NCBI GenBank assembly: GCA_051047955.1
Contig: JBPGPT010000007.1
Location: 1-64,000, forward strand
Length of the DNA stretch: 64,000 nt
Origin: Cystobasidiomycetes sp. EMM_F5
Lineage: Eukaryota
Direction: 5' to 3'
Part shown: positions 24,823-53,500 of the stretch, in pieces
Numbering within the stretch: position 1 is the stretch's first letter
Layout: every line of letters starts with the position of its first letter
The notes under the pieces: generated by a model
Told to the model about the DNA's origin: nothing
Database searches by the model: none
What the model saw: the letters and a program-made list of their open reading frames with translations, nothing else
Position numbers and translations under genes: made by a program

Positions 24823-27800
24823 TCAAGAACCTGCATCGACAACGCTCACTTTCGAGAATACATTTGCAGCGTGTTCAATCGTAAGCTCCACCACTCTGGC
24901 TTTGAGGTGCATCTGTGACCATTCTTGCGACGGATCGGGCGAGCGCATCAATGTTGCTGATCGATATTGACAATCACGTCAGCTAATGTCACACTCCGGG
25001 TACCGTGGTACATACGTCCGAATACAACGCCGAGATTGGCAGGAGTCATCCGATTGATGCTGCTTGCGCGGTGGATCCGATGCAAGTGTAGCATAAGCAA
25101 AGCCATTGTCGCCAGATGTTGCTCTGGTAGCCTGCGCATCAAATTTTCCAACTGTGCTAGCCTCTGGACAGGGTCTGTAATGCTCGGCACTGCGCAGAAG
25201 TCTTGATGAAACTCGAAGGTAAAGAGCGGGTTTGGTAATTGGCGAAAGTAATTTTTAAGCCTGCAATTCCGCAAGGGAAGCCCGTATGTTAGCGAGTATC
25301 GACATCACAGTGGAAGTAACTGACACGGAAGTCACAGCCGAGATGTCATTAAACTTCTCCTCGTCTTGCAAATCGAATGCTTCGCCACGGTCAAAACATG
25401 CAGTGATGAGTTTGGTTTGACCCATACCACCGGACTTGCGATATATGCCTTCATGATCCAGACCAAATGCCTCGACAGCATCTACGCATGCGCGCACGAC
25501 AAACGGAACCGAACGACTTTCAGTAAGGCACTGCGCGACCAGGTCGTTGCCAAACATGGAAAAAGCCGTGGGTTCTTGTGCGTCCTCTGAGATCGAGGCC
25601 TTGGGCGTGCCGGATGCCCCGACAGCAGAGCAATGCCCATGATATAATGGCAGGCACTTTGTGTGACAGTACACGCCACAAGTCTGACAGCGATGTTCTC
25701 CCATTCCCCACATCTTGTCCGTACAATGCTCACAGCGCACGGGTCGAAGGATAGAGATCGGCAAGAAATTATGATTGCGAGAGGGGGTTTTGTCCACAGT
25801 CTGCTGTCCGCGTATCGGAGCGGACGGCTTCGCAAGAATGGCTGGTGCAGCGCGTTCCAGGCCCTTCTTGCTGCCCCATTTGAATTTTCGAACCGCGGCA
25901 TGCGGTACAGCCGTACTGATCTTTTCGGCTGCTATGATTGTGGACGTATCTTCTATTGACTGTTGGGGAGTCATTGGCAAGGATTGCTTGCCGAAAAAAG
26001 GTTGCAGTGTTCTATCCCCGGCCGCATATGCAGACATGGAAGACAATGCCGATATTGGCAACGACATCGCCAATCCATCGTTGGCTCGCACCTGCGTCGC
26101 ATCAGGAAGTACGGATACGCTGCTTGGCGAAGCACTGACCGCTGAATACGCGCTCCTGCCCGACAAATCCTGTGCCTGCAAAAGTTCGGCCTTAATGGCC
26201 TCCACGCTTCTAGTCAGAGTATCGTGCTGCACGGTCAATTCCGCATTCATCTTATTAAGGGTTTCACCTTCCTGGGCGAGAAGGTTGCGTGTCGTCTTGA
26301 GTTCCCCCACTTCGCGTTGTAGGGCATCGCGCTCCTGCGTCAAGCTCTCAAGATCTGCTCGGTAATCCGCTTTCAAAGTCGATAGACGAGCATCGAGGAC
26401 TGCCGACAATCTTTCTGGTGCAGAGGATGCATCATCCCCGGTCCTGTATACAACCCAGTCAGGCGCAGCTCTTGCTTACGAGCAGGGTGCAACTCGCCTT
26501 GGAAAGCTAGCGAGTTCTTCCACCTCGGCTAGAGCAACGTCACGCTCAGCCTTGATTTGGGATAGCTGTTTCTCAATGCCAACCACGCTCGTGCGTAAAT
26601 CGTTGCTACGTATCTGTAGAATCTCTTGTTGCTTCTGTAATTCCTGCAGTTCCCCAATTGCGCCCAGTTTACCTGCTTGCTGCTTCATCTGCTCTTTGAG
26701 CAGGATCATCTGGTATTCGGCGGCCTTCCGAGCTTGCACCTCGCGATCATACTCCTCGCGGGCCATCGAAAACCCTTCAAAGGCTGATCTTGACGCTCGA
26801 CGAATGGCATTATAGTTTCTTTGCAAATCTTTCATTTGCTCTTTCGTTTGTTCCAGCTCTGCCAGCAGTGATTCCACCAAGTCCACATCAAGTGTCATAT
26901 CAGCGGCCGCGCTTGTAACGGGCGACGCTCCGACCGATATGCTGTCGCTCCGTGACCGACGCATGCTTTCCCTGACCTTCTCAACTGCCTCTTTTGTTCT
27001 TTTTTCTACGCTGAAGTCTGTGCCCTGGAAGCCGGTACGCACGTTCGTCGATTTGCGTCGCTTCAGGCTTCCAGCAGATTTGGTGTTCAGGCCAGACGCC
27101 ATTGGCGATGCCGATGTCGTTTCGACATCCTGTTGTGATTCCGCATAGTTTCGGCTGCTTTTTCGGATCGGAGAAGCGTGAAGAGCATGCGACGGAATGT
27201 TGCTCTTGTTAGCAGATGAACTAGTGACACGTACACGGCCTTCTTGGGTACTGTTGAGGCTGACGTTTACCAAGATTTGCTCCGGCGTAAAGATATCTCC
27301 CGGCGATCTATTGCTTGAGGGCGCAGCGGCGTCCACAGCCATGAGGTGCTGATTGCGTTCGTCAGTGTAAGGAAGACTGGTAGAAGCCAAAGCAAGACCT
27401 GTGCTGCTTCTCCTAAGGGCGCTGGGGTCGGCGACGGCATCAAGGAAGACCAGAATATCGGGATCGTTCAAATGGTCAGATTGACGATGTGGATCTACTT
27501 TACTGTTCACGGTAGGCGTAGATTTTGGTGACGATGGGGCACTCGATCGTTCCCCGCCTCCGCCTGACCGCGGTATTGCCAGTGGGACTGGGCTTGCAGG
27601 ATCTTGACGAGGAATTATGTGTAGAGGTTGCGTCCTGATGTCTGTGGCAACCTCATCGGCTAGATCGTATTCTGAACCTGACGATCCACTAGCCTGAGCC
27701 GAAGTCAACAAGCCTGGCGTTCGCGGAGCAGACTTGGCCGGTGAATGTGCCAGCGGAGACAGCGGACGCTGAGTATTGCATGTGCCGCGATCTGTGGGAT

Positions 27801-29470
27801 TAGACGAGAAGTCTGCATCCTCTGTCCCTAGCGCGAAGGTACCATTGATGGGTGGAGAAGGCGGAGGAAGATTACCGATACCGTAGAAGCCTGATCTACG
27901 GTTATTAGCCCTATTATTGGCGGTCGTCGGCTGTAGGTTGAGATTGATGCGCAGAGTACCCTCTGTCTCGGATGAGTATCCTTTCTTGTCGTCCTGCGAC
28001 TTGGACGCTAAGGGACCACTTGAGACGGATTCATCACCAGTTACATTGCCATGATGTACAACCATCGCGCTTCCAGACCCACCGCCAGCGGATTCGGTTG
28101 ATGCACCGGGTGCCGAATTGATGTGGGAGAATTGAAGCCGCGGGTTAGCTTGTCCACTCTTCGTTGGTAAAACTGGCAGCGTATCGAGCTTGTCACTGTC
28201 AAGAAGTCTGCCTGAGGCTGCAGCGAGCTTGCTATCGGCGGAAGTAGAACGTGTGATGTAGTCATGTTGACGCTGCGCACGAAGGCCGTCCGAGGAGGAG
28301 CGTGCGGTCAGAAGTGGCCGGACTGCAAGACTCGTCACATTCGGATCGGTCGACGCAGAAGGATATCTCCGGTGATGTTGAGAATCTGCGAGCGTCTGAC
28401 GTGACGAGTCCGGACTCGGCCCTTTGGCGGGCAGAGTCGGTGCGGTGTCTGGAATCTGGTTGCTTGCAGTCTCTACCCTCGGGTCATTCGCATCCTCGCC
28501 AGAGTTACTCATTGCACGCGGATGGCTCTCGTCTGCGTGTCTTTTTGTTGAAGATCCTGAAGGGGTGGTTATCGCCGTTGAAGAAGCAACGGGCGAATGA
28601 GTGAGTGGGCCGCGGTCATCACGGGTCTCCCTGTCACGTTCTCTGTCAGTTGCGCGCTCACGACGCCGATGCTCGTGAGCTGGACTATTGAGCGACGCGC
28701 TCGAATCGCCATTCGACCGCCCTGCTCTCTTTATCGACCGGTTTCGTTTGCTGTCGGCGTGCTTTCTCGACTTTGCTACGCGCTCATTGTGGCAGCCCAT
28801 GCAGTATATACCCCCTGCGGCTTTGGCAAACACGAGTTCTTCGATCTTTGTGGAGCAAGCTTTGCACTTGAAGCAGTCTGCGTGGTATGAATCGTTGCCG
28901 GTGACGATTGCCTCGTCCGAGATGGCCTGGCCGCATTGGGAGCATACGTAGGAGCAGTTTTCGCATCTGATGAGGACGTATCAATGTTGTGAGGTTGAAG
29001 CGAGCAAAGGGATCACAAGCCTAGCTTACACCGGAGTACCGTCTGCGAGGAGGAGGAGTATGGTATCCTGTTCCATCAGGCTCCGGCATTTCGCGCATCG
29101 GCTGAATACGATACGACGTTTGGTTAGTTTGGATGTTGTTGGGATTGCGTGGTGTCACTCACAAGCTGTTTATGTCGTTTGTGCGGGGATATTGTCCGGG
29201 TCGTGAATATCGCACGGCGACGCGGTAAAGACGAGCCGCAGAGTGATTAGCCGCGTCAGTAGGATATCCGGATGAGAAGCCATCGACGACATCAGCGCGC
29301 TCGTCGTCGTTGTCCACTCCAACCAGCCAAACTGACCACTCGACGTGCCATAGCCCGTCCCCGAAACTGACGACCACCCCGTCCGCCGTCTCGTCGAGTC
29401 TCCCCTTGCACCCGGAGCAGCTTATGGGGAGGGCGCTGTTCGTCGTCGTCGCCGTTTGCTGCGACTCCAT
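24823..29470 (-). CDS. RhoGAP with N-terminal LIM domains, coiled coil and C1 domain (Rga-type)
   Basis: LIM CSGCKG..GDGLWHVE and YCMGCHNE; C1 HNF..CEHC..CQTCGVYCHTKC; GAP GLDHEGIYRKSG, LKNYFRQLPNPL, NRMTPANLGVVFG. 3' end approximate. Confidence 0.88.
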
Positions 29471-32131: not shown

Positions 32132-32555
32132 CACTTGTCACAACAACCAAACGAGCCTTAGTATACGTACGTGAATCAGTTTCAATTGCGTGGCTGGCAG
32201 CCGACCCGTAGCCATAGTAGCAGGCTTTCGAAGAGCTGTACGTCAGTATCACGTTGTCTGACTCTTACTCGGTCTACTTGTTGTGACTACAAAGGATCTG
32301 GCGACATGCTTTAATCCGTCTAAAAACGTTTTTATCAATTTGCGGAGATTACGTCTGGTTAGCGCAAACGATATAATGCAGCAAGTGCAGAGGCAAGGTT
32401 GACTCAGTATTAGCAACGGTGTGTCAGTCTGTAGACAGATGCAACTAGTTAAAGAGTAACGTATGTTCATTACGTGGTATGATTACAACAGCAACCGCTG
32501 CCCGTGCGGCATCAACACCTTATGCAACGCTAACGCCAACTCGGCGATTAGTACA

Positions 32556-34551
32556 CTACGCCTTGTCGGATACATCATCTGGGCTGGGGTTACGAGCATG
32601 CTCAAACAGGTTGTGGTCACCGGAGGGCTTGAGGTACTCTTTGGTAGCACCCGAAGCGTATTGGTCGTGCTCGCGCTGCACTTGAGCCATGACACGCTTG
32701 TGGGCCGTGATTGGCGCCTTGTCGTCGAAGAGAGCATCCATGAATTCCAGCGGGATACCTTTGGTCTCTGGCAGGAGGAATAGAACGTAGAAAATGGCCG
32801 CGACTTGCATGAAGCCGAAGAACAGGTAAACGCCGAATCCGGAGGCACCCATTTGAGCGAACATGGTAGGTGTGGAACGCGAGATGACAAAGTTCCACAG
32901 CCAGTTTGAGGCAGCAGCCGCTGTTGATGATACCAATCGCACAGCGCCTGGGAATGACTCAGAGTTGACGACCCATGGAGTACCGTTCCAGCCGATGGCG
33001 TAGAATGCAGTCCAAATGTAGAAGAATGCGACGGCAGCTTGTCCGGAAGGCGGGAGAGTGGTGGTTGGGTTGGCGGCAGGGTTTGTCTTGCCAAGGATAG
33101 CTCCGATGACCAACATGGCGACGGCACCACCGACTGAACCGACAACGAGGACTGCACGTCGACCATAACGATCTACCCACCAGAAACTGCATGAGTAGGA
33201 TTAGCGCCGGAATTAAAAATCTGTCAATTTGGCAAGACTTACGCCCAAAGTAAAGCACCGACGGATTTGATTACGCCGAATACACCAGTGGTCAAAAGAG
33301 TAGTATTTGTGCCAACAACGCCGATGGTGCGGAAGAAGGTGGGCGAATAGTAGTTGACAGCGTTGATACCGGTACCGTTCTGGAAAATGAAGAGCGACGT
33401 GGTGAGCAATAGACGGCGGGTCAATCTCCACGAGGTGAAGATGGCGCGGACTGGGGCCATGAAGCCAGCACCGACAGCAGCTACATCGTGCTCGACTTGG
33501 ATGGTAACGGCGTTGACTTCCTCAATGAGATAAGGGTGGTCGCCAGGCAGGTTTCTCAGGTAGCAGAGATTCTTGATGGCCTGTTCACGTCGTCCACGCT
33601 GAATGAGCCATCTCGGAGACTCCTTGACGACGATAGGAATGAGAATGGCGAAAAGACCGGATGGGATGAGTTGTACGGCGAACGGTGTGAACCACTGAGT
33701 AAAGCCCATCGGGAGATTGAGGGAGACACCATAATTTATCCAGAAACCGACGATACCGCCAATTTGCCATGCAATTTCGTACATGCCGATGAGCTGACCG
33801 CGGATTTGAGGGGGAGCAATTTCCGAGATGTACAGTGGGGCCATAGAAGACGCTTGACCGATACCGACACCTGCAATAGCACGACCGGCGAAAATAGGAC
33901 CGAGACCACGAGATCCGTTGGCAGCCAGCATGATTGCGCTACCAGCAAAGCAAATGATTGCAGCAATGAGCATGCCATACTTGCGGCCGAGGAAAAAGGC
34001 TATCGGGTACGCAGATAGCGCGCCAAAGAAAGCTCCTACGATGGATAGATGGGTCAGTCTTGATGTAATGGTTGCCCTAACGCACAAAGCCGCTTACCAG
34101 CTTGGTATACCGATACAATGTCTGTACGAAGCGGCGAGTCAGTAAAGGGTCTGGGATCAGCCGGTACTCCACTTGAAACTCACTTGCAGACAGTGTTGTG
34201 AAGTCGGCAGCAGGATACGAGGGAGGATTTAGACTTTAACGCGGAGAAATGGTCAGAAATGTGTGAATTACGTAAAAACCGCCGAAGAACTCACGAGAAT
34301 TCGTTCTTGAAACTTGGAAGGGCAAGGGATGTTCCAAAAAATGCGCTATCGTATCCTGCAACCAGCGAACGTCCTCAGTCAGCATTTCCGGCATTGTGCA
34401 TTTTTGCGGCAATTTGCGGAGAATCCAGCCACTCACCGATCATGATGGCGGCGCTCGCAGCGCAGATGCCCGCAGCGTAGAGACGGCCATTGTAGATCTG
34501 GTCGGGTGCAGAGTCGTGCTTGTCGGCCTTGATGTACTGGAGGATGCCCAT
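32556..34551 (-). CDS. qutD: Quinate permease (MFS sugar-porter family; qutD/qa-y-like)
   Basis: MGILQYIKAD..PDQIYNGRL, spliced MIGYDSAFFGTSLALPSFKNEF, ANIVSVYQAGAFFG, PLYISEIAPPQIRG, FQNGTGINAVNYYSPT, GWNGTPWVVNSE, PETKG; cluster context. Confidence 0.88.
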
Positions 34552-35176: not shown

Positions 35177-36570
35177 TCAACTCTGTGGAGGAGCAGACCC
35201 GCTAGCCTTGTCCTTCTTGACCTGCTCGCTCACAATCCTCACAGTCTCGGACACGTTCAGATCCTCCTCCTTGCACTGCAACCACAACTTTTGCTGGTCA
35301 ATACCCTGGTAGATCATTGGCTTCTCGCCGGTGATGACGTGCCAGCCCTTTGCAGCGGCAATGTTGGAGATTTCGGTATCTGGGCTTGGGTGGTAGCACT
35401 GAAGGGCAATGCAGCGTCAAGTATCAGTAGGTAGCATTCACACAGAAGCACGTTCGACGCACCATTTCGATGATGCCGCCCTTTTCCTTCTTGTCGAGGA
35501 ATGCCTCAAACGTCGCTCGTGCAGCCTTTTCCTGCGGGGTCGATGGCGGAAAGTCGGGAATGCATGATACACTGTCACACGTAACGACATCAGTTGCGCC
35601 CTTCATCCACCCTCTATCAGCCTTACATGAGTGATGGAGTGGGCAAGCTGGCAGCTTCTTCGGGTGTTTTGATGTGAACACACTCGGGATCGAAATCCAA
35701 CGTGGCATTTTGTTTGAATGAAGCGACCATTGTGCTAACTTCGTCGTCGTCGCGGTTGACGACATAGATAGGCGAGCATTTGAAGTAGACTGCGAGGGCG
35801 TATACAGCAGATCTGGTAGATGATGTGCAGTCATGATGTTTAGTCGGGCATGATCGAAGCACTGCGACAGACTGACACACCTTGATGCACCTCCCCCACC
35901 AACAATCATTCCCGGTCTAGACTTGTCCCCAGGCTTTCCTGTCGCAAAGCCTGCATGAACGAATGCCTCTCGGATACCGGTACAGCTGGAGGAGCGCGTG
36001 CATCAGACAGCGAGCTCAAAGAAGTTTTGCAGTACAATCCATCATACGTACTCTGTATTGTGGCCGAGCAGTTTGCGAGAACCGTCTGGCTGGGGAATCC
36101 AGGCGATGGTGTTGCATGCACCGATAGCTCTTCCTTCTGGGGTCAAATCGTCGCACTCGCTGACGATACGGACTTTGTATGGCCTGTGTGGCAGCAAAAC
36201 AGTGTCAGCTCTGTGCGCAACTAGTCGATTTGCGATTATGCGACCGACATTGTCACCGCCGAACCCGCAAAGTCGGGCTGCTTGGTAGCTTCGAGGATAT
36301 CCTCAAATCGCTGTGTTTCCATCTTTGTGTACGTTCTGCATTACCATAGACGTGCTTTAGTGTGCATGCCCAAGCAATGCCTCCCATCCCTCACCTCGGT
36401 ACTCCGGCTAGCTTGTACATGGTATTGTGGAGAAACGGCGAGTCTGGACGATATCGAGTCGGTCAATCATTCTCAGAGTGCTATACCTTGCACTCACACG
36501 TCCCATGCAGCGGGTAGCCATAGAGATACGTCTTGCCGGGCACGGTCTTGTAGTGCTCGGAAATTGTCAT
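35177..36570 (-). CDS. qutB: Quinate/shikimate 5-dehydrogenase (qutB/qa-3-like), multi-exon
   Basis: Spliced motifs YLYGYPL..SPFLHN, AGSAVTMPYK, IGACNTI, GHNTDCTGI, IVGGGGASRSAVYAL, IYVVNRD, GWHVITGEKPMIYQG; stop at 35177-35179. Confidence 0.9.
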
Positions 36571-36808: not shown

Positions 36809-37672
36809 ATGTCTTTTACTACCGTGCGGTGGAATAGCTGACCGAAAGAGCGAGCCAGACTGACGCTTTCAAACGATACCAGGATGACCAGGGTGTGACC
36901 AGAGTCAAGAACATCGACCCGGACGACGGTGGAAAGCTCCCGCAGGAGAAGGATACCTTCTTACTGCTGTCCGGACCAAACCAGTGGGCTGAAAACGGGT
37001 CTAGCCGTTCATCCGCTCGCTGACGATGAATCACAGCAACCTATTCGGCCACAGAGATCCCAAGCACTATGGAACGACTACAATGGCTGAGATTGAGCAG
37101 CGCGTAACAGAACTCGGAAAAGAGCTGGGCGTAAAGGTGTAAGGGAGCTTCGGATTGAACGGTGTCGACGTCATCTAATATCCTCCGACTTTATACAGCG
37201 TCTGCGCACAAACCAACCACGAGGGCGTCTTCATTGACCTCATCCACTACGCTCGTCGCTACGGCGGAGTAGTCATGAAGTAGGCGTACACTTCAACAAT
37301 GGGTTCTCTAGCTGACAACGTTGACTTTTTCAGCCCCGGTGCTTTCTGCCACGATTCGTGAGGCCGATGACTAGTCACGGATAACAGAAAACACGCTGAC
37401 TCTGCACTATCTCAGATACGCGGTCCGTGATGCCATCGGTGGAGTCGACGTTCCCGTCTTCGAGATTCACATTTCCAACATTGAAGCACGCGAAGAATGG
37501 CGCGTGTCCAAAACGGCAGCGGTATGCTCGAGCGGAGTCCTCATGGGAGCTGGTGTATTCGGCTACGAGGTGCGAAAGAGATGGCTTCACAGTCGAACCA
37601 TGACTGACACCCGGACGCGCGTAGCTCGCTCTCCGTGCTGCAGTCCACAAAGCCAAGCAGCAGAAAGCGTGA
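36809..37672 (+). CDS. qutE: Catabolic type II 3-dehydroquinate dehydratase (qutE/qa-2-like), 7 exons; absent from the ORF track
   Basis: Spliced: LLLSGPNHNLFGHRDPKHYGTTT..QTNHEGVFIDLIH..MNPGAFCHDSYAVRDAI..VFEIHISNIEAREEWR..GAGVFGYELALRAA. Confidence 0.9.
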
Positions 37673-37816: not shown

Positions 37817-39351
37817 ATGCACGACTACGCCGGAGTGGATCTTTTGCAGGCTCATGACTTTTGCGTCTCCATCGTGCTGCGAGCTGGGAGCTACCTCCGG
37901 GCGCAGGCTGCTGCAAGATCAGGCCTCACGGACAGCACGGCCGCCGAGCTGACGGCTACCGTAAAGATGTCGTCTGTGGATCTCGTAACGGAAGCTGACA
38001 TGGAAGTCAGTCTTAAGAGAGAATATGATTCCCAGCAGAGCTCCGGCGGTCCTGACTGTGCTTTGGGTTGTTCATCCAGTGCGAACGGATGATATCAGAG
38101 GCTATAGCTGAGAAATACCCCGACCACAAGTACGAGCAAGAGGCCTAGGAAGACATCTGTTATACTAATGCATCCGTGTGACTAGGATCATCGGCGAGGA
38201 AAGCTATTCTGCTGGCCAGGAGAAGCGTTTCCTTTTGGACGATGTACGTATTCTACGATCTGTTTGTGAAATGTCGCTTAATGTTGACACATGCGTTGTG
38301 TTAGGCTCCTACGTGGATAGTCGACCCTCTCGAGTAAGCCTGAGAAGCCACGTTCGAATTTGTTACAACATCCGACTGATTATACTTTCGCACCTCAGCG
38401 GCACAGTCAATTACCTGCATTTATTTCCGCAATTCTGCATATCAGTCGCACTCGTCATAAAGTGAGTATTATGTCCGATTCCAGCCTGTGCTAGCTAACG
38501 TTATATACAGTAAAATACCCGTTGTCGGCGGGATATATGCGCCCTTTGCATCTGGAGTCTCTAAGCATCCGCTTGACTCGCAAAACGGCACACTGTACTC
38601 CGCTGCGCACGGTCTAGGCTCCTTCCTCACACCTGTCGACCCGACAAGCTTTCCTAGCCTGACGCGGGCATCTCCCCGCCAATCTAGTTCCTGCTCGCCC
38701 ACACCTTACTCCGCTTCATTGCCGCTGCTTAAGCCAGTCGCACCATTCAGTGAAGAAGCACCTAAAGGATGCTTATTCGCTGCGGAATGGGGCAAAGACC
38801 GGAAAGATAAACCTAACGGTAATCTAACGAAAAAGGTAAATTCGATGTGGAACATGGCGTGCGAGATCGGAGGACGGCAAGGGAAGGGTGGTAAGGCGCT
38901 ACTAGCCCTGTTTTGGTGCTCTACAGCCCTGACATTGCGATTTAGGGATGGTCCACGGAGTCCGGTCAATGGGGTCGGCCGCGCTCGACATGGCATACGT
39001 TGCAACAGGCGCAGTCGATATCTTCTGGGAAGCAGGGTGTTGGGAGTGGGATATTTGGTATTTATGCGTTTCTGCGTCGTTCTGACGGTCGTAGCATGCT
39101 CACATTTTATTCTGAAAAGTGCGGGGTCCTGTATTTTGCAAGAAGCCGGCGGATTCGTATATTCAGCCCACCCACCTCTGGAAGACAGTGCAGACAAGCC
39201 TCTACCTGGTGCAGATCTAGGCAGTCGTCTCTATCTTGCCATCAGACCTTGTTCTGGGACGCCTGAAGAAACTCCGCGGCAGATGCAGGACCGCGTCGCA
39301 CGGGAAGTATGGAAGCGAGTGGAAGCGATGGACTACCAGAGGCCTACGTGA
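37817..39351 (+). CDS. qutG: Inositol monophosphatase-family protein (qutG/qa-x-like)
   Basis: KMSSVDLVTEADMEV, IIGEES, spliced TWIVDPLDGTVNYLH, GMVHGVRSMGSAALDMAYVATGAVDIFWEAGCWEWD; lies inside the quinate cluster. Confidence 0.87.
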
Positions 39352-39601: not shown

Positions 39602-41917
39602 ATGGCCATCGAGGACCCGCGCAATGGGAACGATAACGCGGGCGCGTCGATACTGCTCATTGGATTCAGAGGCGTAGGAAAGAGCACGCTCGCTCTCATC
39701 GTCGCAACGTATCTCGGCAGACCCTTCATCGACTGCGACAGAGCCCTGTCTAAGCACGCCGGATGTACCCCAAACGAGTACATCGACAGACACTCCTGGG
39801 AAGGCTTTCGGTGCGTAGAAGGTATCCGGATAGTGTCCAAGAGCTAATGTATCGTGCTCTTTGGGCCGGCAGCGACCTCGAGACTGAAATCCTGCGAAAG
39901 ATCCTCGAACAATGCTCCCAAGGCTTCGTTATCGCCTGCGGGGGTGGTGTGGTCGAGCGAGAAGAGAACCGCAACATGCTCAAAGAGTATGGCAGACGCG
40001 GTGGACCCGTTATACACCTCACCCGCGAAAAAGAAAACGTCATTAGCTACCTTATCAACGAAAAGACCCGCCCGCAGTGGGGAGAAGAGATTCGGTCAGG
40101 TGAGTCGCTGTGCATGCTCTCGCATCGACAGCGGACTGACTCTATCGCTTCCCCTGCCAGTCTGGAGCAAGCGATTCCCTCTGTACGAAGAATGCTGTAC
40201 ACATACATACTACTCCCTCACCGCCAAGCGAGACGTGCACGAACCGTCCCTGGTCCTCAAGGATGTTGAGCGAGACTTTACTCGTTTTGTGCGCCGTGTC
40301 TTGAGCTCAACACCCGAACCCTTGCCAGACAACCGTCGGCGTTCGTACGTTATCTCGCTCGCAAATTTGGATCCCAAGACGTTGACCCGCAAACTGCTGG
40401 AAAATGCGACGCATGGGGTAGACGCCATCGAATTACGCGTTGACACTCTCAAGGCTAAAACCGCCCTTGGATCGCCATTCAACTCCCCCTTTGGCACTCC
40501 CAATCTTAATCCAGGATTCCACGATGTCAGCTATGTAGCCTTTGCAGTCGCACAGATTCGCAATCTCTCGCCTCTGCCCATCATCTACACCGTCAGGACC
40601 ATCCGACAAAACGGCAGCTATGTCCTTGATGAATCGTCTCGACAATCTTACATCACGCTGCTAATCTCGGCAATCAAGATGGGTGTAGAATACATCGACC
40701 TGGAAATAGATCTAGGCCCTGAACTCATTACGGAAATAATGCAACATCGGTCACACACGACTCGGGTGATCCTTTCACACGTCGACTATTCTCACAGGCT
40801 CCAGTGGCAACAGGCAGAGGTCCTCCAGCTGTACGAACACGCAGTCAGTCTTGGCGCCGATATCGTAAAGCTGTCTCTGTACGCAGCGACGCCAGCTGAC
40901 AATCAAAAGCTAGCCGATTTCATACACCATGTTGAGCGGAGTGGGGGGGACGATGAGTCATCTCCGAGAGTACCTGTTATTGCCCTGAATACAGGGAAAG
41001 CGGGAGAAGCCTCCGCTCGGTTCAATCATCTCTTTACTCCGGTATCTCACCCATCTTTAAGGAGTCTAAACTCGCTGGGTATCCTGCATTTCCCAGCTTT
41101 GCAGAGATCGCTGCTGAACAGTGGAGCGGAGGCTTTGAAGTACGTGGCCATCGCTCGCAATGGGAGTGGCCGCATGCATCGGAGACAAGTATGGCTTCGG
41201 GCAGTTGATATGTTGGGCCTTCCCGTGGAAATCACAGACGAGGACGACGCTGTCGACCGCGAACAGTTATCAGCAGCATTGCTAGATGCGAAGGTTCACG
41301 ACAAACTGGACTCGATCGGCCTTTCTTCTCCCTCCGCGATATGGACTGGACATATCGATACGGCCTTTAGGGATCCTCATACTAATACCCTTACCTATCA
41401 CAACATCCGCTCCGTGGCCATGGCGGCCTTCATTCAGACACGGCTTGCGCCGATTAATGCAATCACTGAAGTCACTACGGCAATACTGATTGGTGCCAAA
41501 GATGCATACGGAAAAGAAACTGCATTCGCCTTGCTGGAATCAGGCGTGCGACATGTCGTTTGCGTGGATAGCGATACATCAATGCCGGAGGATGGCCGGA
41601 TTGTTCACCTAACAACGCCCGAACAGCTCTCAAGTAGACAGTACCCAACTCTGGTCCTCACGTTCACTGATCCTACAAAGACTGTGATACCTGTGACTTC
41701 GTTACTCTCGTCTCCAACTGGCGGAACAATTTTGACTTTAGGGGATGCTGCCTCAAGCGTAGGCTGGAAAGAGTGCCTTCAAAGCAATGGTCTGAGTCAT
41801 GCATGGGTGCATTCGAATCATCACGATATTGAGATGGCCACTATCAGAGAGCAATTCCAGCTCATTACTGGATACCGGCTACCTGAAGCCGCATTGAAGG
41901 ACACCGTGATAGATTGA
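39602..41917 (+). CDS. qutR: AROM-derived quinate repressor (shikimate-kinase-like + type I DHQase-like + degenerate shikimate-DH-like), ~730 aa, 3 exons
   Basis: ASILLIGFRGVGKSTLA, VIACGGGVVE, GVDAIELRVD, PIIYTVRT, EYIDLE, GADIVKL, FTPVSHPSL; no DHQ-synthase or EPSPS domains. Exons 39602-39810, 39873-40099, 40161-41917. Confidence 0.8.
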
Positions 41918-42012: not shown

Positions 42013-45000
42013 TCAATTTGTCCTCCATAGATCTCCATCTCCCTTCGTCCATCTGTCCAGCATACCGGTAAAGCCTGAAAGCTCGTTCGGGGAAGAAGCG
42101 CGACTGAATCGGGGCATGTCAATAGAGCCAAGTGCTGCGATAACGTCTGTTTGCGCCCAGCTTGCTGCATCAAAAGCCTTCTGATTATCCAATTTTCCAT
42201 TCTCAAAGAGGCTACTCAGTGCCTGGTGCGGCAGAGAATAACTTTCAGGCAACCCAATACTCTGGGCAGATGGCTGCGCTACTGTTGTGAAGTGGCCAAT
42301 AGCTTGACCCGCCTGACTGCGAGGATGGTCATGGGCAGACTGAGCAGAAACCGGCGGTAGTACACCATTCGTGTAGTGGTCCAGCGATGCCCAATCCATC
42401 TGGAGCGCAGATGAAGTTGAAAACAGGTCGTCCGGCAGGCTGCTCGCATATGTCATGCTTGCAGCCGAAGTGAAAGGAACAACAGAAGATTGAGCGGCAT
42501 GGCCGTTGATGGCGGTTCCGTGCTTGCCAGGGCTGCTCCTCAGACTCATGCAATGCTGGACCCGCTGAGAGGGCAGCGAAGCGAGCAGCTTCTCCATCAT
42601 GTTGGGAAAGATGTGCTGCAGTTGAAGCATTGCAGTAATGTCGGAAGGTTCTTCCATGACAAGATCCGAACTCAGCGTTGCTATCGTGAAACAGAGCAGC
42701 GATGTCGCTATAGTCGATCGGTAGAAGGTGTGGACACGCCTTCGAGCCTCCAAGAACCGTTGAGCAGTACGTATGTCTTCTCGTACAGCGTTCACTGACA
42801 AATCACCAATACTGATTCTGCATAGAGACAGCTCTTTCAGTTTCCACGTCACCTTCTGTGGTGAAACAGACGTACAGCTCTCTCTGGATGACAAGGCGCC
42901 AGTGCAAGTGAGAGAGGTGGACATCGACCCGATGTTGTGGCTGTGCACCGATTGATTCGTCTTCTGGCGTAAGCTCTGGTAGTTGCGCTCTCAGAACTTC
43001 CAGATCGTCCCAGCATCCCCTGAGCGAGTCGACTTCTGCTCGCGTACGCTCGACGGCATTCGCGATGGTCAAGATCTTTTGTGCAATCTTTGCAAGCGAC
43101 ACGGACTGATTGAAAATGGAGTATATGCGTGAGGGTACAGGAGGTCGGTGCTGTGCCAAAGAAGCCACGGACGGAGTAGGCTGCGAAGTGTTGTACATGT
43201 TTTCGAGATCGTCTGGCATTTCGCGTTTCCAGAAATCCCATTCGTCGTATCCGCTCGAAGGCAAATCGAGGACCGCAGTAATACCAGGACACAGTGGCCA
43301 TCGTCCAAGCTGAGAAGCTAGTGCAGTGTCTAGGACGACTATAGAATACCACGTCAGCAGGCGGGTGGTCTGTTCGCCTTCAACATTGGTAGTGCTTGTT
43401 GGCGGTACATGCAAACCAAGGTGGAGAGCTAGCCCTATCGTTTGAGCTACGGGGATGCGTTGAGAGACACAAGCAGTAAGCTAAGGCGATGCACGGTCCA
43501 GTGTGACGGCACTCACCGAGTCCTACCCACGCCAATGTAAGTTGACCTTCACCCCAATCTGCCAAGCTGAGCAGGAGCATAGCTTGCACGGTATGCAAGG
43601 ATGAATTGTGCAATTCTTCGAGTATGCGCGACCGAGCATGTTGACGCAGTTTGCTGGCCTGAGCGTGCAGGTCGACTATGGGTGAAGGGGCCATATAAGG
43701 CGTTGCGATTGCAAAAATTGCATATAGTAACGCCCATGGAAGTGTAACATCCTTGGCAATGTGCGGATTGCACGACCACTGCATGATATCGAGCCGAGAG
43801 CACATGGGCAAGTATGGGTGAACAATGTTGAGGTAGGCTTCGAAGAGTTTGTTGCGCTGCAAGTCAGACGGAAGGTCCGGCAGATCCAGAGCATGTAGTG
43901 CAGCGTCTCTCGATACAGCATGGAGCACGGGTGGAGTCTTGCCTAGATCGACAAAGCCTGATGTTGCTCCAAAAATGCGAGCATTGCGGCCACTTTTACC
44001 CGGTTCCCAGATTATTCGGTAGGGCAACCTTGAACTGCTGTTTGCAGATGGCGAGTCAAGATCGCTATTGTATGTAGCAAGTGGATCGGCCAGGAAAGAG
44101 ATGTCGCCCATCGATCGACTCTTGTTGTGCATTGGAAGGCCTTGAGTGTGGTTCCGGCTAAAGCCGTTGAGAGGGGCATGAAGCGAAGTTGATGGCAGCT
44201 GGATCGTGTAGGAAGAGGTGGAAGAGGGGCCAGCAGTGCTTAGCATCTGCAGAGCTGTGGCAGGCGTGAAGGGAGAAGGAGGTGTTTGCTCGCTCGACCC
44301 GGTCATCTGATCCAGTGTGAGGGCGAGTGGAGGCTGTTGCGAGGCATTGAGATGGCTAAGAACTGGTATACTGTGACCTGCAAAGAGATTACTGCTGTTG
44401 TCGGCTGTGCTGTGCGGTATGAGCCAGGATGTCGATGCTGATGACCCCGCGTGCTGCCGTTCGAGCTCGTCTTTCGGCATGGGCGGAGGGGATATATCGC
44501 CTCCGTTCTCGCCGTCTCCGTCATTCTGGTCTTCGTCAAAGTATCTCCCCACGGCGGAAGCTCGAAAGATGGAGTGCTTTACGGTCGCAGAGGAATGGCT
44601 GTTGGCAGAGTCTTCGAGCAACGCGTCGAGCGAGGGGGGAAGATGGGGCTGGAGCAGTCCGGGAACTGCACTTGGGTCATACTTTTGAATCCCGAGCAGC
44701 ATCTCGCTGATCCCTTCCAGACCTGGCAGGACTCGGTACAGGTCGTGGAGATGGGTCGACAGCCGCTGCACTTTGGCCTGTACGTTCTTTCCGGGAACGG
44801 GACCTCTTCTTCGCGGGACAGTCCAGCCGCACTCTGAGCCCTTTGCTGCGCAAGGTGCGCAAACTGGCTCTTTGCCGTCGCATTTGACCCTTCGTTTCCG
44901 GCAGGTCTGGTTGGAACACCAAGGGAGGTCAGCGTCAATATCAGTGTCAGTGTCAGTGTCAGCATCAGTCTTCGTCGTCGTCCATTGCTACAATCTCACA

Positions 45001-45053: not shown

Positions 45054-45538
45054 TATTGCGACCGATATTGCTGCCTTTTCGAATATAAAAGGCAGCTTTT
45101 ACTCCATCACTGCATGGTCATTGTCATCGCTGCTGCATAGTCAGGCTCATTTGCACTTGGTCTCCATTTCAAGTTGGCTATTTACAAAGCTGGCCGGAAA
45201 AGAAAGAAGCAAGAAAGAAGACTATTCATTTCCGAATAACCTATTGAAAAGCTTTGACCAGGTCATATCGCAGGTAGATATCCTCGTCAAAGTTGCTGAA
45301 GCCATCGTCCAAGCTGCGGTATGCTCCTCCAGACTCCTCGGATATCCGTCAGCAAGATCATCCGCCGTCGCGAAAACATTTAGGGCTATGGAAAAATAGG
45401 TCAAAGATGGGAGAGATTATTGGAGATGCAAAGGAATGTGAGGAGCTTCGAGCACTGCGACTGGGACAGAGTCAGCTCTACTGACAGTGCAAACACAGAT
45501 CCAGTCTCCGTAGAAGCCGCCGAGCTCGACGCACCATC

Positions 45539-46739
45539 ATGCCCAGGTCATCCAGATATGCTATCGCAACCCTATCCCTCGGGAGCTGCGAGATTCACTC
45601 GCTTGAAAGCAAGCTCGTTGCCGCCAGCAACGCAGGCTTTCGTCGCCTAGAGCTATTCGTCGCAGATTTCGAAAAGTACGTCAGCCTCTACCTCCAGGAG
45701 AAGGGCCTGTCGTCATCTGTCGAGTCGCGACTGTCAGCAACGAGGAACCTGCGCGCAATAGCAAAGAACCTCGACATTACCTTCAACTGCTTGCAACCGT
45801 TGCGCGACGTGGAAGGAAACGTCGACCCGGTAAAGCGAGCTAAAAAGGTTGAAGAAGTCAGGCAGTACTTTGCGATATGCAACATTCTCGACATCGACCT
45901 CATCCTATGCTGCTCCAGCAACGATCCAGAGTCGGATGGAAGGGTGTCAGTCATCTCGCGAGACCTCGTAGAATACGCAGACATGGCCAAGCAATGGCAG
46001 GCGCAGAACGGAGGGGCCTTGATTCGCATTGGGTATGAAGGGTGAGTCCACGAATGTCAACATACGCTTGGGTGCTGTCGTCTAATACCCTCAAACAAGA
46101 TTGTCGTGGGGAACGCACGTCAACACCTGGTCGCAAGCATGGGCATGCGTAAACCACGAACCTCGTCCAAATCTGGGCCTCATTGTAGACTCGTTCAACT
46201 CGCTTGGGAGAGAATATGCCGATCCTTATAATGCTCCCACTGGCCTGCAGCGTTCCCCCGCCGCATCCATTGTGTTCCTCCGCCAACACCTCAATCAGCT
46301 CATCTCGACAGTACCCGGCAACAAAATCTTCCTCTTCCAGGTTGCCGATGCATGCATGCCACCCGCTCACCTATCACGCCCACCACCGCCCGAGTCTGGT
46401 ACTCCGCGACTGCTGCCCTGGTCGAGGAACTGCAGACTGTTTCCACTTGAAGTTGAGCGAGGCGCATACCTCCCTGTCACGGCGTATGCGAGGGCAGTAT
46501 TGGCGACGGGGTACCAAGGAGATCTCAGTCTAGAAGTCTTCAACGCTTCCCTGCACGAGGCAAACAAAGACGTCCCTATGCAACACGCAACTCGCGCATA
46601 CTCTGCGTTGGAACGGCTGGACCGTGCGCTCGATGAGCAAGTCGACGAATCCAAGACGGAGCGGCCTGACTCGCCGCGCAGAGTACGAGGGAGTCCGAGA
46701 GTAGCTTTGGTTCCGCTGCAGCCAGCGTCTGCGATGTGA
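45539..46739 (+). CDS. qutC: 3-dehydroshikimate dehydratase (qutC/qa-4-like; xylose-isomerase/AP-endonuclease-2 TIM barrel)
   Basis: YAIATLSLG, AASNAGFRRLELF, CLQPLRDVEG, spliced IGYEGLSWGTHVNTW, NLGLIVDSFN, KIFLFQVADA, WSRNCRLFPLE, SLEVFN; one intron. Confidence 0.9.
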
Positions 46740-50597: not shown

Positions 50598-53500
50598 ATG
50601 GCCTCCGGATACAAGTTTACAGAGGGTGGGAGGGTTTATTACTGATTGATTAATACAAAGCTGATTGTATCCATTGTATTCAACGTCCAGCCGCTCAAAA
50701 GGTCCTCGAAGCTGCAAGAGACCTCGCAAGAGAAAACAGCAATTCGAGCATAGTCCCAGCGCATATCGCAGCCGCGTTGCTCGACGAAGGCAGCGGAGAC
50801 CCAACAAAAGCTTCGTCTTCGTCGTCTGGCAGCGCTGGCTTGTTTGTTAACGTCCTGCAAAAGGCAGGCGCAACCGTCGAAACGATACGGCGAAACGTCA
50901 GCCGCGTCGTAGTCAGGCTCCCAGCTCAGGATCCTCCCCCCGACGATATTTCCTTCTCTGGCCCCACACTGCGTATCCTCCAGGCCGCTCAGAAGGCGTC
51001 AAAGGAAGGCGGAGATTCGTTTATCGGCACCATCCACCTCATCGTACCCGTGTGCAAGGACAGCTCCATCGCCCCATTCATCAAAGAGGCAGGAACGTCA
51101 GACGCTTCCATCCAAGAAGCGGTCAATGCCGTAAAGTCGGGCAAAAAGGTAGACTCGGCCTCGGCGGAAGAGTCATTCGAAGCGCTGTCAAAGTATGCCG
51201 TCGACCTCACTGCCCTGGCCGCAGAGGGCAAGCTAGACCCAGTCATTGCAAGAGACGACGAGATACGTCGATGTATACGGATCCTGTCTCGCCGGAGCAA
51301 GAACAATCCGGTCTTGATTGGAGAGCCGGGAGTGGGAAAGAGCGCAGTTGCAGAAGGACTGGCACAGCGAATCGTCGCACGGGATGTGCCGGTCAACCTC
51401 CTCGGCAAGCTATACTCCCTAGATATGGGCGCACTCATGGCTGGCGCTTCTTACAAAGGTGCGTAGTGCGTTTTTGTCAGAGCATATATCGCTGATATTC
51501 TAAACTCTGAACAGGTCAATACGAAGAACGGATAAAGAGCGTCATTGACGAGTGCGAGAAATCGGATAATGTAATTCTTTTCATCGGTATGTACGAGTAC
51601 ATTTGAGTATGGCATACAAAGCTGATTATTTCCTTACAGACGAGATGCACTTGTTAGTTGCAGGGAAAGGCGACGGGTCTGGAGGGATGGATGCTGCCAA
51701 CCTGCTCAAGCCCAGTCTCGCTCGCGGTCGAATCAGATGCATCGGTGCCACTACACTTGGCGAATACCGCAAGTACATCGAAAAGGACCCAGCCTTAGCG
51801 AGACGTTTTCAGGAAGTACAGATTGCGGAGCCAACCGTTCCCGCCGCACTTAGCATTCTTCGAGGAATCCGCGAGCGATACGAGCTGCATCATGGTGTTA
51901 CAATCTCGGATGCTGCACTGGTACAGGCAGTCGTCCTTGCACATCGCTATCTCACATCTCGCCGACTGCCAGACAGCGCCATTGATCTCGTAGACGAAGC
52001 CTGCGCGGCCGTGCGCGTTGCTCGAGATTCGCAACCCGAAATCATCGACAAGCTTGAACGAGAACGAACACAGCTTCAGATTGAACTGCACGCGCTGGAA
52101 AGAGAAAAGGAGAGATCGAAAGGTCAGGATGAAGCGGCAAATGATCGACTCGCCCAGGCGCAGGCTAGCTTGCACAGGATTGACGACGAGCTAGCTCCAC
52201 TCAAAGCGCAGTACGAGGCGACAAAGTATCAGCAAGACGAGATTCAAGCAGTCAAGAAGAAGCTGGACGAGATGCAAAACAAGATCGAAGCGGCCATGCG
52301 TATAAACGATATCGCTACCGCCAGTGACATTCGTCATTATGCGATACCCGACTTGACTGCGAGGCTCGAAAAGCTTGAAAAGGAGAAGAAGCAGCGTGAC
52401 ACATCGTCTACCCTCGGTGACGATGAAGTCACGCCAGACGCTATCGCTGAGATTGTTTCTCGCTGGACCGGCATTCCCGCTTCGGCACTAAAGCAGACGG
52501 AGAAGGAGAAGCTCCTGCGACTGGAAAGTCGCCTGGCGAAAGAAGTAGTCGGCCAGCCCGAAGCTCTGAAAGCCATAGCCAACGCCATACGTCTGTCGAG
52601 ATCCGGTTTGGCAGACGAGACTAAACCCATAGCCTCCTTCCTCTTCGTTGGACCCTCGGGTACAGGCAAGACCGCAACTTGCAAAGAGCTTGCCCGACAA
52701 CTGTTCAACGATCCCGACTGTATCTGCCGAATTGATGGCAGCGAATGTAAGTAGCACGATTGTGATACATGATCAGGTGCGAGTACTGATATAACTCTGC
52801 AGACAGCGAAAAGCATAGCATCTCCCGTCTGATTGGTGCTCCTCCTGGATACGTTGGTAAGCAAGAATGATCCTCGCGTTGTGGCGCTCGCTAATGACAT
52901 TCTCGTTGAATAAGGCCACGATGAGGCTGGACAATTGACCGAGTTTGTGGTAAGCGGACTAGCATATGCATTTGCATCTGCAGTTTGAGAAAGCTGATGA
53001 CGTATTTACCTTTACTGTTATAGCGGAGAAAGTACGTACATCTTAGCCAAGGTTACGGAAACGCATGATCTGATTCCTCCCCTTCACAGACCATATTCTA
53101 TTGTCGTCGTGGACGAGATCGAAAAGGCGGCGAGGGAGTTTGTCCTCCTTTTCCTGCAAGTGCTGGACGATGGGCGACTCACCGACAGCCAAGGTCGCGT
53201 TGTCAGCTTCCGACAGTGCATCATCATTATGACGAGTAACCTCGGATCTCAGTACCTCAATGCCCTACCCCCCGACTCGAAGATTACGCCCGAAGCGTCC
53301 GAGGGTGTGCACAATTCCATCCGTGCGCACTTTCCTCCAGAGTTCATCAACCGCATCAGTTCCATCATCATCTTCAACCCGCTCGGACGCAAGCAGGTGA
53401 CTTCGATTGTCAATGTCCGCTTGGCCGAGGTGCAGAAGCGACTGGCAAAGAATGGTAAGAATATCAAGCTGGAGGTGGACGATCAGGCCAAGAGCTGGCT

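Follow-up and report, generated by a model that had tools for sequence, protein, structure and literature searches.

The quinate gene cluster of fungi, known as qa in Neurospora crassa and qut in Aspergillus nidulans, is a textbook model of gene clustering and gene regulation in eukaryotes, whose enzymes are as a rule regarded as a set inherited together. In these clusters a permease, qa-x, a repressor, an activator, dehydroshikimate dehydratase and quinate dehydrogenase accompany the type II dehydroquinase qa-2 or QutE, which takes the same pathway step as the gene described here. Type II dehydroquinases have also been studied as antibiotic targets. Here we analyzed 64,000 nucleotides (nt) from Cystobasidiomycetes sp. 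EMM_F5 (positions 1 to 64,000 of contig JBPGPT010000007.1, assembly GCA_051047955.1; hereafter the window), in which a gene at 36809-37672 on the plus strand encodes a type II dehydroquinase. Our analysis confirms that the gene and its unusual lid motif are real and supports a separate bacterial descent; the enzyme, with its variant lid, is of a known kind and lies in a known kind of cluster. We consider it probable that a fungal quinate cluster here employs, as its catabolic type II dehydroquinase, the product of an acquired bacterial aroQ of actinobacterial kinship, and that the changes in the lid arose independently of those in bacteria.

The closest described systems resemble the window gene in different respects. 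Ascomycete qa-2/QutE, represented by the C. albicans structure 3kip, belongs to the same enzyme family, but it has the canonical lid GPNLNLLGTREPxIYG together with QSNHEG, lacks the N-terminal extension of the window protein and forms a separate clade. AroQ of Nocardiopsis (for example P0014 from N. alkaliphila) shares with the window protein RDPxQYGTTTL, VVCAQ[ST]N, VVMNPGA and the HISN..AREEFR block, whereas it is bacterial, is about 151 amino acids (aa) long without extension or introns, and keeps the canonical GPNLNLLG lid. A bacterial AroQ subgroup with an NHNMFG lid (PDB 6cv6) has His and Phe at the same lid places as well as RDP, QYGT and QTN; it differs in having Val or Ile before the Asn, NAGAWTHYS instead of NPGAFCHDS, HMSN instead of HISN, and no N-terminal extension, and it was not the sister of the fungal clade in our best trees. 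The enzymes of Mycobacterium tuberculosis and Helicobacter pylori, as described in passages of PMC6011038, have their essential and substrate-binding residues at the same spacing as the window protein (Pro11/Asn12, Arg19, Tyr24, Asn75, His81, Asp88, His101, Ser103 and Arg112 in M. tuberculosis numbering), and the H. pylori enzyme also has an Asp after the lid Arg; unlike the window protein, both are biosynthetic and bacterial. Because the Pro/Asn-Arg-Tyr spacing of the window protein equals that of the M. tuberculosis enzyme, its His39 and Phe42 stand at places 13 and 16 of the latter, so that compared with the common form Leu is changed to His at place 13 and Leu to Phe at place 16.

The gene, spliced by reading the sequence, consists of seven exons with a 525-nt open reading frame (ORF) for 174 aa, and each of its six introns is of the GT..AG type, 53-60 nt long and provided with a CTRAY branch-like site. 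Evidence for splicing came from contigs of a public run, X1 (share 0.08), which are 95-99% alike and guessed to be RNA; we used them for splice joints, not for expression level. These contigs skip 36984-37036, 37139-37198, 37280-37333 and 37358-37415, that is introns 2-5, exactly as modelled. Exon 1 (36809-36823), read from the sequence, carries the start codon and residues 1-5 (MSFTT). Intron 1 (36824-36882, 59 nt) is indirectly supported by an 11-letter loose end, CTTTTACTACC, which precedes 36883 in an X1 contig and equals 36813-36823, the end of exon 1. Exon 2 (36883-36983), covered by an X1 contig, completes the extension at about 36951, continues with the first core strand and enters the lid, of which it holds the codons for G36, P37 and N38 as well as two bases of that for H39. 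Intron 2 (36984-37036, 53 nt) therefore splits the codon of the lid His, and the motif depends on its removal; the joint 36983>37037, with 101 letters on its shorter side, creates GPNHNLFGHRDPKHYG in the X1 contigs. The rest of the lid, H39-G51 with Arg45 and Tyr50, is encoded by exon 3 (37037-37138, also under X1 cover), where lid coding ends at 37073 and a helix follows. Intron 3 (37139-37198, 60 nt; joint 37138>37199, GT..AG) leads to exon 4 (37199-37279; VCAQTNHEG to GGVVM), likewise covered, and intron 4 (37280-37333, 54 nt; joint 37279>37334, whose shorter side is only 24 letters) to exon 5 (37334-37357), which encodes NPGAFCHD with Asn100 and His106 and is known from the sequence and an X1 contig. 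After intron 5 (37358-37415, 58 nt; joint 37357>37416), exon 6 (37416-37569) provides Asp113, Glu124, His126, Ser128, Arg133 and Arg137, and its translation is 78% identical to a Cystobasidium minutum protein. Intron 6 (37570-37624, 55 nt, GT..AG) lies outside the X1 cover and is placed by homology across the junction to P0002, a full-length relative of 170 aa on a 948-nt contig with 82% identity to the window protein over residues 1-168. Exon 7 (37625-37672), read from the sequence, encodes LALRAAVHKAKQQKA and ends with the stop codon. Successive segments of the spliced protein are TFLLLSGPNHNLFGHRDPKHYGTTT, VVCAQTNHEG, NPGAFCHDSYAVRDA, FEIHISNIEAREEWR and GYELALRAAVHKAKQQKA.

The lid of the spliced protein reads GPNHNLFGHRDPKHYGTTT (residues 36-54), with N-H-N-L-F-G in place of the consensus N-L-N-L-L-G, and the protein also contains CAQTNHEG and a C-terminal LALRAA. 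The same lid was found in five full-length relatives. That of P0002, GPNHNLFGKRDPKHYG, occurs in proteins named at NCBI as from Cystobasidium, Phenoliferia and Microbotryum intermedium, and Sporobolomyces has GVNHNLFG. In a related metagenome contig, L082, a single uninterrupted exon holds both the N-terminal extension and GPNHNLFGERDPKQ (GPNHNLFG), and the introns of this contig lie elsewhere. The lid motif is thus genuine, and a splicing artefact is excluded. Among 399 domain rows, a biased sample made up of the best matches to two queries and of one representative search, 268 read PNLNLLG; the fourth place is occupied by His in 64 rows and the seventh by Phe in 72. GPNLNLLGxREPxxYG is the reading of every one of the 24 named ascomycete and Mycena rows. 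N-L-N-L-L-G is the majority motif, not a defining feature of the family. The original prediction, made from the window alone, had given the coordinates of the gene, its spliced lid motif, QTNHEG and LALRAA as we reread them, and had named GPNLNLLG and QSNHEG as the usual state of qa-2/QutE and of most AroQ proteins. It had singled out intron 36984-37036 as the point on which the motif turned; the joint seen in X1 yields NHNLFG and does not restore LNLLG. The six introns it described are present, and so is the N-terminal extension, with a length of about 25-28 aa.

Several public gene models within the clade look mis-spliced (P0001, P0039, P0041, P0046 and P0005). The QTNxEG exon is missing from the models of C. 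minutum and M. saponariae, that from R. toruloides lacks half of the lid, the Rhodosporidiobolus model has an insert in the lid, and in P0005 the last dehydroquinase exon is fused to a Zn2Cys6 factor.

Membership of the family is clear from profile and structure comparisons. PF01220 (dehydroquinase class II; curated cut-off 23.3 bits) matched three of the four exon frames tested, with 52.2 bits for exon 6, 26.4 bits for exon 3 and E 0.025 for exon 4 (profile positions 45-70). P0002 matched 39 type II dehydroquinase sequences in PDB with E values down to 2.3e-35, the best being 1gqo (124.9 bits) and the second 6cv6 (119.7 bits). An AlphaFold2 (AF2) model of P0002, not of the window protein itself, had a mean predicted local distance difference test score (pLDDT) of 91.5, and Foldseek superposed it on solved type II dehydroquinases with template-modelling scores (target) of 0.87-0.94 and root-mean-square deviations of 1.2-1.7 A over 139-147 columns. 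In an alignment of 44 sequences (A1), R43, Y48, N98, H104, D111, E122, H124 and R131 of P0002 are invariant and S126 and R135 nearly so; the window protein is numbered two higher. The lid residues Arg45 and Tyr50 and Asp113 of the neighbouring subunit (Arg19, Tyr24 and Asp88' of M. tuberculosis) are all present in the spliced window protein, as are the residues for substrate binding and proton transfer, Pro37/Asn38, Asn100, His106, His126, Ser128 and Arg137. The catalytic Arg, Tyr and His were thus retained, as had been predicted.

On the best reading, the gene would encode a working catabolic type II 3-dehydroquinate dehydratase. The product would be the middle enzyme of the route from quinate through 3-dehydroquinate and 3-dehydroshikimate to protocatechuate. 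It would presumably follow the usual type II enolate mechanism outlined in passages of PMC6011038: the lid would close over the substrate; Tyr50, held in position by Arg45 and having lost its own proton to Asp113 from the adjacent subunit, would take the C2 proton; and His126 with Asn100 would handle the C1 hydroxyl, while His106, Arg137 and Ser128 would bind the substrate. In P0125 (315 aa) and P0126 (307 aa), elsewhere among the rows, a single chain carries the type II dehydroquinase domain twice in tandem.

Searches placed the window protein apart from its ascomycete counterparts. After other Pucciniomycotina, the best matches to P0002 were Nocardiopsis AroQ proteins, at about 57% identity and about 180 bits, which equals some fungal members, and no ascomycete appeared among the best 120 of its 1815 matches. 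The window protein itself is 55-60% identical to Nocardiopsis AroQ but 46% identical to P0128, a member of its own clade. A phmmer search of 1.84 billion representatives gave 6951 matches, 37 of them at E<=1e-30, and added four further fungal-type rows (Atractiella, Meredithblackwellia, Flagelloscypha and one more), and orthologues were found in at least 10 named fungal genomes. Before tree building we dropped twelve rows whose domain match was missing or shorter than 120 positions (P0001, P0003, P0004, P0005, P0017, P0181, P0224, P0233, P0234, P0244, P0263 and P0265), and the maximum-likelihood (ML) trees left out the near-duplicate P0009 and the faulty public gene models P0041 and P0046. The main ML tree contained 93 of the 399 rows, 30 of those 93 drawn at random from a pool of 96.

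In all trees the window protein belonged to a fungal clade consisting of Cystobasidio-, Microbotryo- and Atractiellomycetes and one Agaricales row, and Nocardiopsis was the sister of this clade. FastTree with all 399 rows gave Shimodaira-Hasegawa (SH) support of 94 to the fungal clade and 95 to its union with Nocardiopsis. With IQ-TREE under LG+C20 with posterior mean site frequencies (PMSF; 93 rows, 150 columns), the corresponding values were 99/90 and 95/87. Under the same model they were 98/80 and 98/89 when 16 lid columns and five long rows were removed (88 rows), and 100/98 and 99/82 in an 89-row tree, to which we had added 12 metagenome bacteria nearest to Nocardiopsis and six named NHNMFG-type rows and from which 22 rows had been thinned out. 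The canonical fungal QutE clade (97/93) lay elsewhere in the 93-row tree, beside Thauera rows (84/63). An approximately unbiased (AU) test under the site-heterogeneous model rejected a single clade of all fungal rows (log-likelihood difference, dlnL, 90.6; p 3.7e-59). The dehydroquinase gene of the window is thus not orthologous to ascomycete qa-2/QutE and belongs to a separate small fungal clade. The next rows outside the pair of fungi and Nocardiopsis were P0130 and P0148 (Kitasatospora). The relatives retrieved from metagenomes with P0014 were at most 62% identical to it and formed a separate bacterial group in the 89-row tree. Within the fungal clade the branching roughly tracks taxonomy, and Atractiella branches off outside the rows of the Cystobasidium-like fungi and the Microbotryomycetes.

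Most likely, an early ancestor of the Pucciniomycotina acquired a bacterial aroQ, which then would have gained introns and the N-terminal extension of about 25 aa and come to serve in a cluster with fungal regulators. One old acquisition followed by vertical descent fits the taxonomy-like branching, the six introns and the extension, and the age fits the spread of the clade over several classes of Pucciniomycotina, as had been suspected at the outset. The direction from bacterium to fungus is suggested by the bacterial outgroups, by the position of Nocardiopsis, which is not nested in the fungi, and by its common lid and length. The direction and the age of the transfer are inferred, and so is whatever function the altered lid and the extension may have. 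The bacterial descent proposed in the original prediction is supported, with one correction: the separation from qa-2/QutE held in the ML trees and the AU test, but the lid is a poor guide to the donor, the nearest kin being the actinobacterial Nocardiopsis. Its view of the cluster as a mosaic would hold in the sense that the dehydroquinase appears to be of foreign ancestry and the regulators contain fungal-specific domains.

Three other observations concern the fungal dehydroquinases at large. Ascomycete proteins named as catabolic 3-dehydroquinases, Mycena vulgaris QutE and two Thauera AroQ rows are about 66-74% identical to a query of the canonical type, P0151, and since the ascomycete catabolic enzymes are so close to Thauera AroQ, both fungal lineages of dehydroquinase II may be bacterial in origin. 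Mycena vulgaris QutE (P0392, Agaricales) was placed inside the ascomycete clade with Polytolypa and Aspergillus (96/93), a position that hints at a transfer from an ascomycete to the Agaricales. The sole Agaricomycotina member of the Pucciniomycotina-type clade, P0248 from Flagelloscypha sp. (Agaricales), has a very long branch (1.13), and the spacing Arg...Tyr-Gly that is usual in the lid is missing from it. A copy in decay, an error in the gene model or a transfer between fungi may explain this protein.

The bacterial NHNMFG variant, which the original prediction had assigned to a proteobacterial AroQ subgroup, does exist. In a scan of one genome per prokaryote species with an NHNMFG-type query (P0061), at least 579 loci encoded a relative, and the best 80 of these were mostly from Betaproteobacteria (Paraburkholderia, Caballeronia, Burkholderia, Variovorax, Polaromonas and Rhodocyclaceae), with a few Firmicutes and one Azotobacter. 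One member is PDB 6cv6 from Burkholderia phymatum STM815, entered there as a type II dehydroquinase and with NHNMFG in its lid, and His39 and Phe42 of the window protein match the residues of this subgroup in the first half of the lid. For the best 80 loci (L001-L080) we counted by hand the neighbours among co-directional adjacent frames, of which 145 were scanned and the two longest left out. A Shikimate_dh_N gene directly adjoins aroQ at 28 of the 80 loci, a GFO/IDH/MocA oxidoreductase is a neighbour at 16, a DctP protein of a tripartite ATP-independent periplasmic (TRAP) transporter at 14, and AP_endonuc_2 at five, two of them with a glyoxalase-type tail. In addition, L003 has GFO/IDH/MocA and major facilitator superfamily (MFS) neighbours, and L054 has AP_endonuc_2. 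Such dehydrogenase-, oxidoreductase-, transporter- and dehydratase-like neighbours make the subgroup look catabolic. Tct transporters were also seen among these operon-like neighbours.

A common origin with these proteins, in which a proteobacterium or a relative of one was the donor and the His/Phe lid was simply inherited, is an alternative reading, and the two lids are indeed closely alike (G[PV]NHNLFGKRDxxQYGTTTL in fungi and G[VI]NHNMFGKRDPKQYGTITL in bacteria), QTN and a catabolic context being shared as well. The fungal and NHNMFG groups also share one region of the tree, though its support is weak (29/83 with 93 rows, 63/60 with 89). We nevertheless consider this origin unlikely, because Nocardiopsis, with its LNLLG lid, was the sister in all three ML trees and in the FastTree tree, and because the fungal rows, apart from the lid, look like Nocardiopsis (VVCAQTN, VVMNPGA, HISNVYAREEFRHxSVTA and GYxAGCG). 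On the tree made without the lid columns, at least three changes are required for the His state and at least two for the Phe state, and the basal rows of the NHNMFG group read LNMFG, implying that His arose inside that group; the likeness of the lids between the fungal clade and the betaproteobacterial subgroup thus looks convergent. The changes of Leu to His and Leu to Phe would then have arisen within the fungal clade, independently of the betaproteobacterial catabolic proteins. It is still less probable that the clade is anciently fungal and that Nocardiopsis gained its gene from a fungus. The Nocardiopsis rows do form a tight and shallow clade of a single genus with short branches beside a deep fungal clade, a pattern expected of a recipient. 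Yet they lie outside the fungal clade, lack the N-terminal extension and keep the canonical lid, the next rows out are bacterial (the Kitasatospora row and metagenome rows), and such a transfer would still leave the fungal clade apart from ascomycete QutE.

Vertical descent from an ancestral fungal qa-2/QutE would agree with the habit of fungal gene clusters of being inherited whole and with the place of the gene, which is that of qa-2 in the same type of cluster; its position in the trees would then be an artefact of fast divergence, long branches or composition, and some rows of the clade do have long branches (0.87 for P0128 and 1.13 for the Flagelloscypha row). Against this, the AU test rejects the single fungal clade that such descent demands, the end branch of the window row is short (0.12), its placement was unchanged without the long rows, its identity to Nocardiopsis exceeds that to P0128, and C. 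albicans 3kip ranks only 34th among the 39 PDB matches to P0002, with 95.2 bits compared with 124.9 for 1gqo. We regard vertical descent as very improbable. Bacterial contamination or an assembly chimera might be suspected from the fact that the best non-fungal matches are bacterial, but it was refuted by the six introns of spliceosomal type, of which four splice joints were seen in an independent run; moreover, intron-bearing fungal genes lie on both flanks, including those with Zn2Cys6 and Fungal_trans domains, and orthologues occur in the named fungal genomes, so that we give it hardly any credence.

The acquisition of a bacterial aroQ of actinobacterial kinship remains our preferred explanation, and the following points weigh against it or against parts of it. 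In the AU test a joint clade of the fungal and NHNMFG rows with Nocardiopsis kept out of it was not rejected, costing 16.9 log-likelihood (lnL) units with the lid columns (p 0.126) and 27.9 when these were removed (p 0.0596), so a donor of the proteobacterial type is possible. Nocardiopsis is a sister and not an ancestor, hence the direction of transfer rests on outgroup reasoning only. The sampling was biased toward the best matches to two queries, the rows seen included only two Agaricomycotina and neither Ustilaginomycotina nor early-diverging fungi, and the alignment is short (134-150 columns); the distribution among basidiomycetes may be wider, or a second, canonical copy may exist in these genomes. 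As to the enzyme itself, the window protein, P0002 and the Cystobasidium protein share departures at near-invariant positions, NPGAFCHDS for ..[TA]H[TY]S and NIEAREE, and in the window protein alone Trp (W136) replaces the nearly invariant Phe of REEFR, so that the activity could be altered. Run X1 is RNA by guess only, and one of its contigs, over 37328-37445, retains intron 5 and differs at three bases and by one inserted base, so that the run must contain either unspliced RNA or DNA, or material from another allele or strain. Finally, the qa-3-, qa-x- and qa-4-like neighbours described below all fall below the Pfam cut-off.

The N-terminal extension of about 25-28 aa lacks an equivalent in the bacterial rows and in all PDB matches (139-147 of 170 columns aligned), and is conserved across the fungal clade around a GV[TS]R[IVL]xKxDP motif. 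In the AF2 model of P0002 it contains two short strands, residues 2-5 and 11-15, with pLDDT above 90, and it is predicted to form a beta-hairpin. Because only about eight of the 44 rows of the alignment carry the extension, we treat the hairpin as a lead and not as an established feature.

Activator-, repressor-, permease- and dehydratase-type genes together with an Inositol_P gene lie within 15 kb of the dehydroquinase gene; together with a weak dehydrogenase-like signal upstream, these neighbours correspond to what the qa cluster of N. crassa and the qut cluster of A. nidulans contain. Upstream, exons of an MFS sugar-type transporter (qa-y-like) lie at 32483-34093 on the minus strand; PF00083 matched 33239-34093 with E 2e-64, and the frame at 32483-33172 had no Pfam match. 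A possible quinate/shikimate dehydrogenase gene (qa-3-like), divergently transcribed, lies at approximately 35424-36570 on the minus strand. Shikimate_dh_N matched it at 36042-36302 with E 5.5e-5 and 23.8 bits, short of the required 27; bacterial ORFs resembling shikimate dehydrogenase yielded only weak tblastn matches (36063-36227, E 0.001-0.2), and the 192-aa frame at 35424-36002 (minus strand) had no match in Pfam or PDB, which makes the assignment tentative. Downstream on the plus strand, an inositol-monophosphatase-family gene (qa-x-like) at 38169-39351 gave two PF00459 matches, E 9.2e-6 and 9.3e-4, both below the cut-off, and a 689-aa ORF at 39848-41917 contains a type I dehydroquinase-like domain (PF01487, E 3.2e-41), as a qa-1S/QutR-like repressor would. 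A Zn2Cys6 transcription factor of the qa-1F/QutA-like activator type (PF00172 and PF04082) follows at 42803-44987 on the minus strand, and a two-exon xylose-isomerase-like triose-phosphate isomerase (TIM)-barrel gene, a candidate qa-4-like dehydroshikimate dehydratase, at 45485-46739 on the plus strand (PF01261, E 5.5e-5 and 1.4e-6, each exon alone being below the cut-off). The N. crassa activator site GGATAANNNNTTATCC had no match in the window with up to two mismatches, where 1.14 would be expected by chance.

In Pucciniomycotina, then, the dehydroquinase that takes this role in the cluster has another, apparently actinobacterial, ancestry, and a foreign homologue would have replaced one member of a conserved set of fungal genes whose regulators stay fungal. 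This would mean that the cluster was assembled or repaired piecewise and not copied whole. The two lineages that, apparently independently, exchanged two conserved leucines for His and Phe also offer a natural experiment on the lid that covers the substrate, and for one of them a structure, 6cv6, is already solved. It is conceivable, though we hold it with considerable doubt, that the His/Phe lid is an adaptation which catabolic type II dehydroquinases reached more than once, separately in the Pucciniomycotina clade and in the operon-borne betaproteobacterial subgroup, that it tunes lid dynamics or substrate affinity for degradation, and that a hairpin gained by the fungal clade alters assembly or regulation of the dodecamer; the quinate cluster would then have exchanged one enzyme for a bacterial homologue while its regulators stayed fungal. 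The full-text literature gave no account of this origin or of the lid variant, which is weak evidence of their being unpublished because subscription journals are mostly outside its coverage, and the accessible parts of 10.1101/184242 and PMC4314829 do not treat Pucciniomycotina dehydroquinases.

Farther out, the window contains two unrelated neighbours: a gene with LIM, C1 and RhoGAP domains at 25255-28980 on the minus strand, and a ClpB/Hsp104-type AAA+ chaperone gene (Clp_N, AAA_lid_9 and AAA_2) at 50654-52754 on the plus strand.

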